Positions 3,344-8,940 of a stretch of 10,183 bases of DNA are shown here, one piece after another (the stretch's first letter is position 1; each line of letters starts with the position of its first letter). The translations under genes were made by a program, and so were the position numbers. The notes under the pieces were generated by a model. The model was not told the DNA's origin. It saw nothing but the letters and a program-made list of their open reading frames with translations, and searched no databases. The DNA comes from a virus (taxonomy: Duplodnaviria > Heunggongvirae > Uroviricota > Caudoviricetes), in the IMG/VR virus record IMGVR_UViG_3300029721_000031. One strand, written 5' to 3'.

Positions 3344-6300
3344 TTAGCCACTTAACATTCCCCCATCACGTCGCATATTTAACAGATTGCCCTGCACCCG
3401 CTGATCAACCATCCCCATAAGTGCTTTTATTGCCTGAGGGCCAATCTCTCCATTCTGGCCGTCATTTTGAATAGTGATTTGGTATACAGGGGCATAGGTA
3501 ATATCTCCGCCTCCATTACCACTTTTACTATTAACAGCTCTGACACCAAGAGAACCATCGGAAGTTCGTGTTAATGGCATAATGGCTTCCGGACCAGCCT
3601 CACCAAAAACACCAGCCCCTCTTGCAAAAGCAAAAAATTGCGGGGAATCATAAATACCGTTCGAATACGTGTTCAATGACGGAGACTCATAAACACCGCC
3701 CTTTGCATTCGGAATAAATTTACTAATAGCACTCCCGATAGTTCCTAAAATCCCCCCAGAAGAACTGTTACTAATGCTGTCGAAAATCCCAGTAATTGAA
3801 GCCTTTAATGCTATTCGACTAAGATCCGAAATCACGGAAGTAGCGAAAGAACGAAAATTTGCTTTGCCTGTCGTGACAAAATCACCCAGCGCATCGGTCA
3901 TTCCATCAAACATCTGAGTCGTGGTTGATTTTATCTGCTCACTGATATCCTTAGTGTCATCCAGCCAGTTATTGAATCCCTGGGAGGCACCACTAACCCA
4001 GTCTCCTGCCTGAATATCGAGCTGCTCGTTTTTCTGTCTGACAATTTCTTTTTCTCGTTCCAGAGCATCATTCAGAGCCTGCATTTTCTCCTGAAAAACA
4101 TGATTTGACATCCCACGGGATTTATCTGCATAGTCACGTTCAAGTTGCAGACGCTGATTGTTATATTCACGTTCAATCCGCAGTAATTCCTGCTGGCGTT
4201 GCTGATTTTTATCGCCAACCCCATAACCAGCAATCTGAATATCATACCCCTGTTGACGATTATCAATCGAAGCCTGCAATGAATCACGCCATGCAGCTAT
4301 TTCGGCTGATTCCTTGATTAGCCTGTTATTTTTTTCAATCGCAACATTTTTCTCCATCAACGCGGTTATTTCTTCCCGGTGTAAGAGAAGCGATTTCTGA
4401 TCCTTGGTTAATTTCGATGACGGTCGTGACTCCAGGTCGGCAATCTGCTGACGCCACTTAACCAGTTCCTGTTCAGAGGAACTTAATTTAACGGTTAATT
4501 CAGTTTGTGAACTTAGTAACGCATTCTGTTGATTCAGATGATCAATCATTCGTTGGGCAGCATCATCCGAATAACCTTTCGCCTTTGGTTGCTTTGGATC
4601 TTTATAACGCTCATTTATTTGAGCGATAAGATTATTATATTCTTCCTTTGAATACTGACTCTTTAGTTTTTCCAGTTTTGCAAGTTCACTAGCTCTCTGC
4701 TGCTCCCGGGTCTGATATTGTTTTGAAAAGGCATCTGCTCTCTGTCTGAGTTCAATTCCTTCCTGTTGTCGCTTGTTGTAATCGTTTATTGATGAATTTA
4801 GTACGTCCTGAGCAATTTTTTCTGCTTGAAGTACGCCCAATTGCTGCTTTAATCGTGCCAGCCTTTTATTTTGAGCTCCGCCATCTCCAATGCCACCTAA
4901 CCCGAAAACTCCGGGTCGGGTATTTTTTTCTATTTCATCAATTTGACGGAGAACATCTGAGATTTTTTGATCAAGGGAGGCCTCACGGCCAATATCCAGC
5001 ATGGAATCCCATGCCCATTTTGCGGAGTCTGCGACAGCTTTCCATGCAGTCTCAAGATAACCAAGATTTTCTTTAATCTGGTTGGTGCGCTGGATCATTG
5101 AGGATGAGTATGCTTCTGTCGCAATGCGGGCGGCCTCCTGCTGGTTCCCTTCATCCTGTAGCGCCTTAATCTGGTTATAAGTCGCAATTGTCAGAAAATG
5201 GTACTGATCATTAAGTTTTGATATGGCACTGACAGGATCCTTTGCAATTTCATTGAAGTCATTAACCAGTTGTTCGGTTGATATTCCTGTTACTTCGCTC
5301 GTTTTTACTATCGCTGTCGTCACTTGCTCCAGCGAACTGCTCGCTACCTTTCCCGAACGCACAAGCTGGTTTAATACTGCCGCCGCAGCGCCAGTTGTCG
5401 AATCAGCCGCATTCCCGGCACGTTGAACTATATCGGCCAATTGCCCGCTGGTTGTCCCCAACTGATTTCCGGTAAGAATAAGAGACTTATTAAATTCGTC
5501 CTGCTCCTGAGAGCCTTTATAGTAAGCCAGCCCTAAGACGCCAACGGCTGCTGCGGCCAGGGTAAAAGGATTAATTAATCCCAGCACATAAGAACCAACA
5601 CCTTTGATCGCCGGGCCAATCCCACCGAACATATCTTTTAGCTGGCCGCCCTGCTGCATTAACACCATAAAAGGCGACTGACCAGTGGACAACCCAACAA
5701 CAATATCCGTCATTTGTGCAGGCAACATGCGCATAGCAAAAGCCGTTTGTTTTGCCGACATTCCGGTTTTGCTTAATTGAGATTGAGTAACCTCAAGCTC
5801 ACTCCGCATAGCACGAAGTTTTCCAGAAAGTTCCTCATACATTTCAGGAGAGAGCATCCCCTTAGCTTTTGCTTCATTGAGCTGTTTCTGTTGTTCTACC
5901 AGACGATTAAAAGCAGTTCCGACAGGGTCAAGTTGAGCAATCAGACGTTGCAAAGCAGCAACCTGTTCATCATGCGCTTTTGCTGCTTCTCGCTCTGCCT
6001 GAGCCTCTCCGGTAAGCTCTCGCCGTGTTTCCTGTATTTTTCGGCTATAATTCTCAAACTGAGAACCATTTATTTTCCCGGATGCAAACGCAGCATTAAG
6101 TTCATCCTGCTGTTGTTCAAGATTTCTTAGCGCCGCAGCCAGAGGGTCGATCTTGTCCAGCATTCTTTGAAAGGCCTGAGTCTGCGCTTCCTGCTGGGCG
6201 GCAGCAAGTTTTCCGGCCTTCTCGGCTTCTCTCTGCGCTTGCGCAACCCCGCTCAATTCCTCTGTGGTTTCATTAAGTTTACGGACAAGAAATTCATATT

Positions 6301-6577
6301 CTTCTTTATCAATAAGCCCTTTATCGAAAAATTTCTTTAATTCAGAATAGCGTCGACCGACAGTATCAATTGCGGCACCAACTGGATCAATAGCTGCTTT
6401 TAATTTTGCGAGCGCGTTCTTCTCATCTTCTGTTGCCTTAGTCACTTTCCCTGCGCTATTTGCAGCAGTTTCCCCGGCCTGCGTCATTTTGACTAATGAG
6501 GAGGTCAGATTGTCAGCATTATTTTTTGCTCCAGTGCTATCAATAATTATTGCGAGACGCGAGGTTTGCTCTGCCAT
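3344..6577 (-). CDS. H: Tail tape measure protein (1077 aa), lambda H-like core with an N-terminal repeat extension
   Basis: Long coiled-coil-rich ORF. Segments [59 protein letters not shown], and the C-terminal [38 protein letters not shown] resemble lambda gpH as I recall it. It sits between G-T and M. Start ATG at 6577 with GGAG 9 nt upstream. Confidence 0.92.
5777..6391 (-). repeat. Three tandem in-frame repeats (~73-80 aa each) in the tape measure N-terminus
   Basis: Protein repeats begin IDPVGAAI (aa 63), IDPLAAAL (aa 143) and LDPVGTAF (aa 216). Each is followed by similar helical segments, e.g. [16 protein letters not shown] vs [16 protein letters not shown]. The corresponding DNA motifs (actggatcaatagctgc, agggtcgatcttgtcc, agggtcaagttgagc) are visible on the plus strand. 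Confidence 0.6.
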
Positions 6578-6600
6578 TTATTAAAACTCCAGACAACAAA

Positions 6601-6620
6601 AAGCCCACCGAAGTGGGTTT
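6601..6620 (-). terminator. Terminator-like hairpin (5-bp GC stem, UUCG tetraloop, U5 tract) 24 nt upstream of the tape measure start codon
   Basis: Minus-strand RNA reads AAACCCAC UUCG GUGGG CUUUUUGUUGU. It lies within a 163-nt non-coding spacer (6578..6740) between the T stop and the TMP start. Confidence 0.4.
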
Positions 6621-6740
6621 CAGGCGACATAATAGTAGATATAGCGATTACGAGGCCACGCAATGCTTTTCTCCAGGAGCATCATCGATTTAATTAAAGA
6701 CACCATCACATCTCTGTAACAGAGTGTACGTAATTAACAA

Positions 6741-7061
6741 CTACACACACTGCTCCTGAAAATACTGGTCATCCAGTGCAAAGATCACTGCTTCAAACTC
6801 ATCGCGCTCAATCAATACCGGATGAGTGGCTAAATATTCATTTATCTCTGTCAGAGATAAAGGCAAAGGCACCCCGGTCATTCCAGCATAACGTCGGGCA
6901 CGGGATATTACCGAATAGGCGTACAACAATTCCTTAAGCACCGGGTCTATTTCTGGTTCCGGTATCGGTGGCAACCTGAGTTTTTCTCGCTTCCATCTTG
7001 CCTTTTCCCCCCTTTCTCCCCCGAACTCCGATAACCACCGCTGGGCGGCTATGGCTTTTTT
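6741..7061 (-). CDS. T: T extension of the G-T fusion chaperone, reached by programmed -1 frameshift from G (no ATG of its own)
   Basis: The -1 frame relative to G is open from 7085 to the TAG at 6743..6741 and has no ATG start (the ORF track begins it at a TTG, 6974). A -1 slip at A_AAA_AAG would give ...DTIKK-AIAAQRWLSEFGGERGEKARWKREKLRLPPIPEPEIDPV...QEQCV, a G-T product of about 255 aa. Confidence 0.7.
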   Translation of the reverse strand, partial: KKAIAAQRWLSEFGGERGEKARWKREKLRLPPIPEPEIDPVLKELLYAYSVISRARRYAGMTGVPLPLSLTEINEYLATHPVLIERDEFEAVIFALDDQYFQEQCV

Positions 7062-7510
7062 ATCGTATCCTGCTTCTGCTGCTCTTTACCCTGGGCGATG
7101 CTGGCTGCTTCTGCAAGGATCTGCCAGTACAACTCTGGATTCTGCTTAAGCAGCGCGATCCCTCGTTCTGGCGTATATTCCAGTGCAACCTCAGCACCAT
7201 TAACCAGTTCACCAACCCCTTTCCAGTCTTTCAGCAGATAACGAGCAGCATTATCAATGAGTAAATCATCAACAGAATCTACCTCGGAAACCTTTGAAAT
7301 ATCAAACTCCTTCGTTCCGACGTGCAAACTGGCATCCATTTTCTCAATGTGACGACGGATTAATGCATTACGGGAGCGATACTGATCGTTATCGCTGCTT
7401 GCCACCAACAGTTTTAACCCGTCTATAGGTTTTAAGTCCTTCATTGGCGTAAACCAGCGTTCTCCACCGATGATAATTTTCTGATTAAGAATAAACATCC
7501 ATAACCTCAT
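7049..7510 (-). CDS. G: Tail assembly chaperone G (153 aa from ATG at 7510; alternative start ATG at 7498 gives MFILNQ...)
   Basis: Small acidic ORF immediately downstream of the major tail gene and upstream of the tape measure, i.e. the conserved G position. It ends ...QDTIKKP with a slippery heptamer spanning its last codons. Confidence 0.75.
   Translation of the reverse strand: MRLWMFILNQKIIIGGERWFTPMKDLKPIDGLKLLVASSDNDQYRSRNALIRRHIEKMDASLHVGTKEFDISKVSEVDSVDDLLIDNAARYLLKDWKGVGELVNGAEVALEYTPERGIALLKQNPELYWQILAEAASIAQGKEQQKQDTIKKP
7055..7061 (-). promoter_or_regulatory. Putative -1 ribosomal frameshift slippery heptamer A_AAA_AAG
   Basis: Minus-strand sequence gat acg ata aaa aag cca tag: the heptamer A AAA AAG occupies the last two Lys codons of G, one codon before the G stop. 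The same heptamer type is used by E. coli dnaX. Confidence 0.65.
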
Positions 7511-7519
7511 TCAATGCGT

Positions 7520-7546
7520 CCCCCTGTAGTGCAGTACCACAGGGGG
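7520..7546 (-). promoter_or_regulatory. Strong hairpin in the V-G intergenic region whose 3' arm overlaps the predicted G Shine-Dalgarno
   Basis: Inverted repeat CCCCCTGT(7520..7527) / ACAGGGGG(7539..7546). On the transcript the stem can extend to ~11 bp with one G-U pair and a 5-nt loop. The 3' arm ACAGGGGG ends 9 nt before ATG 7510. No U-tract follows, so it is not a canonical terminator. Confidence 0.45.
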
Positions 7547-7558
7547 AATAACGGAAAA

Positions 7559-8521
7559 TCAACTAATCGCATCAGCACTGGCTTTTGCGATCACGGCAGT
7601 CGGGGAGCATTTTTTTCTGGTTATCGTAGGTGCTTCATCTGCTGCGGTAATGCTCAATTGAACCTGGATAATGTCAGTATTACCCCCATCAGGCCATTCA
7701 CCTGACACCTGAACCTTCGGGAAACTGAAAGTGTATGCCCCCTCTCCATTCGAAAGCGTGAAGCTGAACGGAACTGTTTCTCCAGTCAGTGTTTTACTCC
7801 AGATTTCCCACGCGGCTTTAGACCATGAAAGCGTCACCGTACCGGACGGTGTAAAAGTAGTCGGAATATTTGCTCCTGCATAAGGCGAGCCAGTCCCGAT
7901 ACAACGCTGTGTCTGGAGTTTGTTATCGAACTGAATATCAAAACTGTCGATACAAAAACCGTTACCTCCGGCAACACCATTCAGGCTTACTGCTGAAACC
8001 GCCTTAAACGAATAGCGTAACTTTCCTGCACTATCCACAGGTTCGCCTTTGATAAAATTCGTATCATCGGCCTTTGATTCCCAGCCCAGCCCGGCAAAGG
8101 TTACGGTCGCTGTAATATCGCCGTCGTTAGGGATCTGCATTTTCCATGAGCCAACCTGCGCTCCTCTGACGACAGAGGCAATTCCGACATCGGACGCATA
8201 GGTCGCCAGAGAAAATGTTATTCGCTCATTCCCCATTGTCAGAGAATCGCCTGACCATTCCGCGCCGAAACAGGATGCAAGAAAATCATCATGTTGACCC
8301 CAGCGAAATTTGGTACCAACATCACCGCCGACATCCACAGTGCCAGGCGTCGCCCCCTGAGCCATCCGGGAGCCACCAATCTCATTATTTTCGCCTTTAT
8401 TCTGGGTGGGTTTTACTCCCCAGCTTGTGCGTTTTAATAAACTCCAGTCACCACTTGCTGGCGTAGTGCCTGCAACTGTCTCCCGGATAAATGCCGAGAT
8501 AACCTTTGCACCTGAACTCAC
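7559..8521 (-). CDS. V: Major tail (tube) protein, V-like (320 aa)
   Basis: Position immediately upstream of G/G-T. Gly/Thr/Ser-rich beta-type composition typical of tail tube proteins. GTG start at 8521 preceded by TAGGAGG with a 5-nt spacer. The family assignment is by synteny and composition, not a verified motif. Confidence 0.75.
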   Translation of the reverse strand: MSSGAKVISAFIRETVAGTTPASGDWSLLKRTSWGVKPTQNKGENNEIGGSRMAQGATPGTVDVGGDVGTKFRWGQHDDFLASCFGAEWSGDSLTMGNERITFSLATYASDVGIASVVRGAQVGSWKMQIPNDGDITATVTFAGLGWESKADDTNFIKGEPVDSAGKLRYSFKAVSAVSLNGVAGGNGFCIDSFDIQFDNKLQTQRCIGTGSPYAGANIPTTFTPSGTVTLSWSKAAWEIWSKTLTGETVPFSFTLSNGEGAYTFSFPKVQVSGEWPDGGNTDIIQVQLSITAADEAPTITRKKCSPTAVIAKASADAIS

Positions 8522-8547
8522 AGGAGCCTCCTATGTCATTAATTGCG

Positions 8548-8940
8548 CTAGAGCGCGCGATATGGAATTTGAAGATTAAGCTGGAACCAGCCATTCTTTT
8601 CGCCGACGGCTATTGAGGAAACAGCCTGGTAACTGAGACGATCGTCATCCTGAAACTCAAACAGTTCCCGCAATTTATCGGCTGTCTCAGTAATGAGTTT
8701 TGAACCAGAACCTGCGGGGACAAATAACTGAATAATGATTATCCCCGTGCGATAAACAACCGGCCCCGCGCCAATTTCATTAACTCCAGCTTGCCCGGGA
8801 ATATTACTTAACCGCGCCCAGATTAACTTACCGGAAGGATCGAACGTTGGCCCGTTCGGATACAATACGTCTTTTCCATCAATAATCGTCTGTGCCGTCA
8901 TTCTGGAAATAACCGTATTTCTGATTTCAGTAAACTTCAT
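8548..8940 (-). CDS. Tail terminator / tail completion protein (gpU-like role), 130 aa
   Basis: Size and position (directly upstream of the major tail gene) match the lambda U / siphovirus tail terminator slot. Start overlaps the upstream stop by 4 nt (ATGA). No specific motif verified. Confidence 0.55.
   Translation of the reverse strand: MKFTEIRNTVISRMTAQTIIDGKDVLYPNGPTFDPSGKLIWARLSNIPGQAGVNEIGAGPVVYRTGIIIIQLFVPAGSGSKLITETADKLRELFEFQDDDRLSYQAVSSIAVGEKNGWFQLNLQIPYRAL

Follow-up and report, generated by a model that had tools for sequence, protein, structure and literature searches.

The REP hairpins of malE-malF and the stem-loop of the puf operon are intercistronic stabilizing structures that set differential expression within their operons. 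In the late operon of phage T7, the intrinsic terminator T-phi follows the major capsid gene 10, and a proximal U-tract is a defining requirement for intrinsic termination. For phage lambda, Sampson and colleagues reportedly attributed the relative expression of the late genes to translation initiation in 1988. Stem-loop terminators delimit the late gene clusters of phage SPP1 (PMC6316719). Terminator hairpins also raise the abundance of the transcript upstream of them, the best being those that have a GC-rich base, are ~14 nt long in the stem and fold at −22 to −28 kcal/mol (PMC11696848).

Here we analyze a GC-rich hairpin lying between the tail tube gene (V) and the tail assembly chaperone gene (G) in a viral DNA stretch of 10,183 nucleotides (IMG/VR record IMGVR_UViG_3300029721_000031), the whole of which we call the window. 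A literature search on the V–G spacer element found no paper, the term 'terminator' being confounded by the 'tail terminator' protein.

The tail operon and its tube–chaperone hairpin

The window comprises the tail module of an Escherichia coli prophage of the Rac-like, lambdoid kind, with every gene on the minus strand, as are the features located below. The 1.7 kb around the hairpin share 99.7–99.9% identity with nine induced E. coli phages, vB_EcoS-473R12 and -666R9 among them, and 98.6% with one Salmonella phage; positions 7400–7700 have a 100% match in E. coli 7/2 (NZ_CP023820), and a 301-nt probe spanning the V–G spacer has matches in 718 of 5,426 complete E. coli genomes. The Rac remnant of E. 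coli K-12 is without the spacer region, matching no more than the final 38 nt of the query. The 99.9%-identical phage ON470614.1 is lambdoid and encodes a Q-like protein (DUF1133 at 1.4e-107; PF06530 at 27.4 bits, just above the cut-off of 26), the gene for which is located upstream of the lysis, terminase, head and tail genes, in one shared orientation.

Gene order runs from the tail terminator (8940–8548) through tube V, chaperone G, the T extension and tape measure H to M, L, K, I and the start of J, where the names M, L, K and I (tail-tip assembly) follow annotation in a related phage. The V-like tube gene (7559–8521; GTG start, TGA stop at 7561–7559) encodes a 320-aa product matching PF18906 Phage_tube_2 (E = 1.9e-32) and phrog_290 (E = 2.5e-111), named 'phage tail tube protein' by PGAP, and is preceded by the Shine-Dalgarno sequence AGGAGG, read from the sequence at 8532–8527. 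The chaperone gene G belongs to the YdaY family (PGAP 'ydaY') and, by phrog_313 and a homologue alignment, occupies 7049–7498, encoding 149 aa from ATG 7498; its homologues carry PF27119. It ends in ...ATA AAA AAG CCA TAG, which includes a slippery heptamer, A AAA AAG (7061–7055, read from the sequence), for a predicted −1 frameshift to G-T, and the C-terminal ...T(V/I)KKP is conserved among homologues. From the slippery site, the −1 frame continues uninterrupted as far as TAG 6743–6741, affording a T extension (6741–7060) that matches phrog_1189 (E = 4.8e-37) and, weakly, PF23812 Phage_TAC_18 (20.8 bits; cut-off 27). The H-like tape-measure gene (3344–6577; 1077 aa) matches PF06791, PF09718, PF24622 and phrog_24. 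G thus has the lambda-type position between tube and tape measure, and the heptamer near its 3′ end together with the −1 frame open to 6741 justifies the names V and G.

The 3′ end of V varies among relatives. In most relatives outside the window lineage the open frame upstream of the spacer spans ~390–450 codons, and its match to the 320-aa window tube ends at residues 302–316, indicating that these proteins have an extra C-terminal segment of ~80–100 aa that is absent from the window tube. An A7 homopolymer lies inside V at 7610–7616, ~50 nt before the stop codon, and ranges from A7 to A9 in near-identical relatives; V ends at an earlier TGA in some of them (loci L008 and L036). Locus L019 also ends V early with the same A7 length, so there the shift arises elsewhere. 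Sequencing error, genuine polymorphism or slippage at this site could each account for the variation in run length, and the V–G hairpin was rejected as a frameshift stimulator for the run, the two being ~60 nt apart.

The hairpin itself occupies 7519–7547, as defined by sequence and folding, with a 5′ arm UCCCCCUGUGGU (7547–7536), an ACUGC loop (7535–7531) and a 3′ arm ACUACAGGGGGA (7530–7519). The initial annotation had described a perfect 8-bp G/C-rich stem extendable to ~11 bp in RNA; this core, CCCCCUGU/ACAGGGGG, is indeed present and extends to 12 bp on inclusion of one G·U pair and a closing U–A pair. Seven pairs of the stem are G–C, and its GC-rich base reads CCCCC/GGGGG. Eleven unpaired nucleotides separate it from the V stop, forming an AU-rich, single-stranded spacer, UUUUCCGUUAU (7558–7548). 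The folding free energy that the annotation proposed to compute came to −22.1 kcal/mol for the 36-nt fold, relative to a shuffle mean of −9.8 (z = −5.4), with none of 200 shuffles as good; a 76-nt context gave z = −2.5. Among all 40-nt folds on the minus strand of the window, the hairpin ranks second at −22.4 kcal/mol (window mean −6.8, s.d. 3.7), and partition-function folds in three sequence contexts returned a pairing probability of ~1. The hairpin is real and exceptionally stable, and not a chance feature.

Several other identities were considered. An Rfam scan of 6400–8700 at E ≤ 1 returned no family, the only hit being a chance snoRNA match of 16 bits. Typical RNase III substrates are longer than a 12-bp stem, and an RNase III site is unlikely here for that reason. 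A REP, mobile or dispersed repeat was rejected after viral contigs were scanned with the pattern CCCCCTGT-N9-13-ACAGGGGG: among the matches listed, all 12 with the window loop have identical flanks and the others are unrelated hairpins, so that within those matches the window stem and loop occur only in the V–G context. A terminator serving the opposite strand was rejected as well, the plus-strand tail being AATAACGGAAAA and plus-strand genes being absent from the window. A weak UCCGU/AUGGA helix joining the start region to the hairpin base in one minimum free energy (MFE) fold is broken without compensation in loci L007 and L062–L065 and was set aside.

The chaperone start codon and its ribosome-binding site

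The proposal that came with the hairpin was one of translational control: its 3′ arm was said to contain the only Shine-Dalgarno-like sequence upstream of G, so that the stem would sequester the ribosome-binding site and hold chaperone translation down. The outcome depends on which of two in-frame ATGs, 7510 or 7498, starts the 153-aa open reading frame (MRLW-MFILNQK...). The phrog_313 alignment begins at residue 5 of this frame. In an alignment of the window protein with 16 homologues from E. coli, Salmonella, Citrobacter, Klebsiella, Raoultella and Leclercia (62–94% identity to the window), Met5 is invariant and is followed by conserved I7, I12, R18, W19 and P22; 15 of the 16 homologues begin with it. 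Furthermore, loci L062, L064 and L065 read ATG AGG TTA TAG ATG, with an in-frame TAG parting the upstream codon from the conserved one. These comparisons support assignment of ATG 7498 as the conserved G start. The upstream ATG (7508–7510) overlaps the Shine-Dalgarno sequence and, given the alignment and the TAG-bearing loci, is not the conserved start.

GAGG (7508–7505) lies 10 nt 3′ of the stem, six nucleotides ahead of ATG 7498, and matches, by eye, a GGAG, AGGAG or AGAGG ahead of the start in every relative; in those relatives the chaperone Shine-Dalgarno is always 3′ of the hairpin and its T-run. The last pair of the stem is at 7519, leaving both GAGG and the start codon outside it, and the hairpin therefore has no gating role in the translation of G. 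In longer sequence contexts GAGG is 20–43% unpaired, pairing weakly and variably with other sequence and never with the hairpin.

The sequestration model does have attractive features. Free GGGGGA from the 3′ arm would pair well with the anti-Shine-Dalgarno (−9.4 kcal/mol); it lies 8–9 nt upstream of ATG 7510, which is in frame with G, and it is fully paired in the fold, the unpaired probability of GGGGG at 7524–7520 being 0.00. However, a distance of 21 nt separates GGGGG from ATG 7498, more than a Shine-Dalgarno of that start could span, and this start has its own GAGG. The 3′ arm is therefore the only candidate upstream of G solely for ATG 7510, the codon cut off from the conserved start in L062, L064 and L065. 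Neither the Shine-Dalgarno nor the start is contained in the stem, and the relatives do not conserve an arrangement in which they would be. On comparative grounds G would start at 7498 from an AGG outside the stem, which is the very outcome that the initial annotation named as contrary to its view; the AGG that it had placed at 7504–7506 is present, at 7507–7505. Overall, we find it scarcely credible that GGGGG is a Shine-Dalgarno sequestered by the hairpin; the V–G spacer is not a translational operator.

An ATG overlapping the chaperone Shine-Dalgarno (ATGAGG, ATGGAG or ATGCAGGAG) recurs across unrelated spacer families, where it is often in frame, 4–5 codons before the real start. Database gene models diverge at this position. 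GenBank phage records start G at ATG 7510, four codons too early, and RefSeq/PGAP 'ydaY', modelled on the K-12 remnant, is a 119-aa product from TTG 7408, 30 codons downstream of ATG 7498, with the consequence that conserved coding sequence appears intergenic. Fixing the chaperone gene start at 7498 corrects both sets of calls.

Terminator anatomy in relatives and the altered T-run of the window lineage

About 400 loci with G homologues were gathered from viral and genome contigs, including E. coli, Citrobacter, Klebsiella, Raoultella, Serratia and Pectobacterium, and the spacer from tube stop to chaperone ATG was extracted in 390, a locus count that is partly redundant (the same contigs were reached via several scans) and for which distinct-sequence counts are the safer measure. 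A second scan of viral contigs, with the protein alignment as query, gave no loci beyond the close ones of the first; single divergent proteins were effective queries. The 390 spacers correspond to 91 distinct sequences, 88 of them 35–73 nt long. Whole-spacer MFE and a strict perfect-stem rule each mis-scored relatives, as weak outer pairs and internal mismatches blurred the start of the tail, and were replaced by a single-hairpin search with a count of consecutive T. All 88 distinct spacers of 35–73 nt contain a GC-rich hairpin. Outside the window lineage, at least five consecutive T directly follow the GC-rich 3′ arm in 66 of 76 distinct spacers, and most relatives read stem-loop, run of 5–8 T, chaperone Shine-Dalgarno and ATG. 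The hairpin and T-run of these relatives have, as judged from their sequences, the anatomy of a canonical intrinsic terminator. Ten distinct spacers of other lineages have lost the T-run and kept the hairpin.

At least four unrelated hairpin sequences occupy the V–G position: the window type and the CCCG...CGGG, CCCTC...GAGGG and GGCC types. The CCCG..CCGC....GCGG..CGGG type occurs in named genomes of Citrobacter, Raoultella, Serratia, Pectobacterium and Scandinavium as well as in many viral contigs that Klebsiella-derived queries retrieved, the short CCCTCTTTGGAGGG type in contigs fetched by a Klebsiella query, and the GGCC type in Siccibacter. The CCCG type is alignable across genera, and its consensus has eight pairs, two of which show compensatory double changes. 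Two more distant phages were inspected by eye: in Erwinia phage Gungnir39 (51% G identity) the spacer reads AAGCCCGCC-CAG-GCGGGCTT and its T-run is poor, and in Pseudomonas phage Aurca01 (27% G identity) CTTTTAT comes after a GC-rich hairpin.

In CCCG-type loci such as L074, L259, L093 and L097, the loop contains CTGCATG, the complement of a CATGCAG that follows the T-run and precedes the Shine-Dalgarno; the two could form a pseudoknot or an alternative pairing. The complementarity is broken without compensation in L260, L352 and L343, giving no covariation support, and the window has no equivalent.

The window lineage retains the stem-loop and has lost the T-run. At the T-run position the window has CGCAUUGAAU (7509–7518), which spacer comparison identifies as a decayed U-tract; the sequence after the stem is CGCAUUGA, with 2 U in the first 8 nt. 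With a formula of the d'Aubenton-Carafa (1990) type and modern energy parameters, for which the threshold is approximate, the window has a T-score of 0.22 and a terminator score of −41.6, versus scores of up to +33 in relatives, many of them positive; a terminator scan of the window did not call the V–G hairpin. A T5 run occurs in none of the 12 window-lineage variants and TTTT in four of them, four reading (C/T)GTTTTGAAT and eight, including the window, CGCATTGAAT; loci L058, L062, L064 and L065 have CG/TG-TTTT-GAAT. The T-rich sequence of outgroups at this position makes it most likely that the T-run is an ancestral feature that decayed in this E. coli lineage. Of the features expected of an intrinsic terminator, the window thus possesses the GC-rich stem-loop and the co-oriented, non-coding location after a stop codon, and is missing the U-tract. 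With the T-run decayed to CGCATTGAAT, the window hairpin is expected to terminate poorly, and it is probably a poor terminator.

Such loss raises the question of whether the stem is a functionless relic of a terminator whose U-tract was recently lost. Beyond the absence of a U-tract from eight variants and its reduction to TTTT in the other four, about half of the stem substitutions among 11 variants break a pair, the neutral expectation, and spacer variation falls mostly inside the hairpin with both flanks nearly invariant. Covariation analysis of the same 11 variants turned up no double changes, although at so low a divergence the test carries no information. Moreover, a terminator may be dispensable under Q antitermination. 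However, all 11 scored variants keep the hairpin, at −13.7 to −21.6 kcal/mol, with 95% of stem cells paired in their alignment, and in L058 the loss of two basal G–C pairs is accompanied by a loop change that makes a new G–C pair. The other lineages argue in the same direction, since the hairpin outlasted the T-run in ten distinct spacers and has been replaced by unrelated sequences at this position, rather than lost. A decaying relic is, on this evidence, unlikely.

The question of residual termination is informed by the remaining non-coding gaps. The window's tail operon has three of sizeable length, V–G, T–H and I–J, each with a hairpin. Near the end of the T–H spacer (163 nt non-coding, 6578–6740), a hairpin CCCACUUCGGUGGG (6617–6604) and T-run CUUUUUGUUG (6603–6594) form a canonical intrinsic-terminator-like element (6594–6617), the top match of the terminator scan, followed by GGAG and ATG; a terminator directly before the tape-measure gene, then a conserved ..CCGGAG..ATG, was present in all 14 relatives with a locatable start. 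The I–J gap (I stop at ~1032; J start ATG at ~971, MGKGSSKG...) has a terminator-like hairpin, AAACCGCCUCCGGGCGGUUU then UAUCGUUU, at 994–1013, located by fold scans and sequence, and a GGAG likewise lies in this gap. Phage ON470614.1 has further terminator-like hairpins downstream of trkG and of its coat gene (GGGGCTTCGGCCCC-ATTTTTAATG). Rac-like tail operons are thus punctuated by terminator-type hairpins at conserved junctions despite the Q antiterminator.

Several relatives have extra genes resembling morons inserted between T and the T–H terminator. In the window, a 21-codon open reading frame, MMLLEKSIAWPRNRYIYYYVA (6685–6620), ends 2 nt before the T–H hairpin and is probably not a gene, having no obvious Shine-Dalgarno. 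The T–H spacer may represent either what is left of a moron or a small RNA.

The terminators at the other junctions, and the canonical ones at the V–G position in relatives, would fit a working, leaky terminator or attenuator in the window, which would stop some polymerases, especially unmodified ones in the lysogen, lowering transcription of G, T, H and genes downstream and insulating the tail genes from read-through. Intrinsic termination is, however, known to require a proximal U-tract, and a stem with 2 U in the following 8 nt and a score of −41.6, missed by the terminator scan, makes this distinctly improbable.

More improbable still is a role at the 5′ end of the downstream message, whereby cleavage in the AU-rich 7558–7548 segment would leave the stem to shield the G-T-H mRNA from RNase E, or the stem would insulate the G ribosome-binding site from V coding sequence. 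The single-stranded character of that segment is compatible with this idea, as are the hairpin's end 10 nt before the Shine-Dalgarno and at −21 from the start, which would approximate the expected 5′ edge of the 30S footprint, and the partial occlusion of GAGG in longer contexts by weak pairings with other sequence. On the other hand, the full terminator anatomy formed by the relatives' hairpin and U-run points to a 3′-end function.

A candidate 3′ function and comparison with known systems

Taken together, these observations lead us to prefer, with moderate confidence, the interpretation that the hairpin is the window lineage's version of a terminator-type intercistronic stem-loop between the tube and chaperone genes. 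Q-modified RNA polymerase, which resists terminators, would read through the hairpin and include it in a long late mRNA, the hairpin acting at most as a weak attenuator that stops a small fraction of polymerases. Located 11 nt past the V stop, it should not be melted by terminating ribosomes and would persist in the mRNA to block 3′-to-5′ exonucleases, such that message segments ending with V might outlast or outnumber those of G-T-H. G would be translated from ATG 7498 by its own GAGG outside the stem. The stronger Shine-Dalgarno of V would add to the effect, with tube protein exceeding chaperone as the result. Indeed, the V Shine-Dalgarno is the strongest among the tail genes, its AGGAGG forming a duplex with the anti-Shine-Dalgarno of −10.2 kcal/mol versus −6.3 kcal/mol for the GAGG of G, so that the V:G ratio is probably set in part by translation.

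This interpretation rescues part of what was originally proposed. As a stable stem-loop 3′ of the more-needed gene and outside the footprint of terminating ribosomes, the element has the features expected of a 3′-stabilizing hairpin, and the annotation's fallback suggestion, a 3′ stabilizing stem for V mRNA, is compatible with all of the findings. Its general idea that the element helps V exceed G likewise survives, via a mechanism other than sequestration.

Several considerations weigh against the terminator-type stem-loop interpretation. The 3′ ends, half-lives and termination efficiency that it invokes are all deduced from sequence. The T-run was lost within sequences that are 90–100% identical, an interval perhaps too short for the hairpin to have decayed. 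A Q-modified polymerase would ignore terminators, which leaves their retention in relatives unexplained by this account. Finally, phage lambda achieves its V:G ratio without any hairpin, its V and G lying just 15 nt apart.

A broader possibility is that hairpins are kept at the tube/chaperone, chaperone/tape-measure, I/J and post-coat junctions to punctuate RNA stability and so set structural-protein ratios, with the E. coli lineage as a natural separation-of-function variant in which the stem alone is selected. We regard this generalization as rather doubtful. Should V mRNA stability prove to depend on the stem alone, this E. coli lineage would offer a convenient natural test of hairpin function in isolation from termination. 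In itself, the V–G hairpin is an ordinary element that matters little beyond annotation.

Among known systems, the phage late-operon terminators of SPP1 and T7 (T-phi) offer a close parallel to the terminator-type interpretation. As in those phages, the window has a GC-rich stem-loop that sits in a short non-coding gap directly behind the gene of an abundant structural protein, shares the orientation of the operon and precedes the Shine-Dalgarno of the next gene, and its relatives have the full hairpin and T-run at this position. In contrast, the window copy is without a U-tract, efficient termination is not expected of it, and it is known here from sequence. Its GC-rich base, 12-bp stem and energy of −22 kcal/mol nonetheless come close to the optimum reported for raising upstream transcript abundance (PMC11696848). 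In being stable, 3′ of the more-needed gene and clear of terminating ribosomes, the hairpin also resembles the stabilizing stem-loops of malE-malF and puf, although it is no REP or dispersed repeat and any differential decay here is putative. Sequestering translational operators share with the window stem a G-rich, anti-Shine-Dalgarno-complementary stretch near an in-frame ATG; the window differs in having its conserved start and Shine-Dalgarno outside the stem, and its relatives have no Shine-Dalgarno in theirs. The V-G-T-H region of phage lambda, finally, is mirrored in the window by a tube gene, a G with an A AAA AAG −1 frameshift into T and a lambda-type tape measure (PF09718), whereas the 15 nt between V and G in lambda are replaced here by a spacer carrying a stable hairpin.
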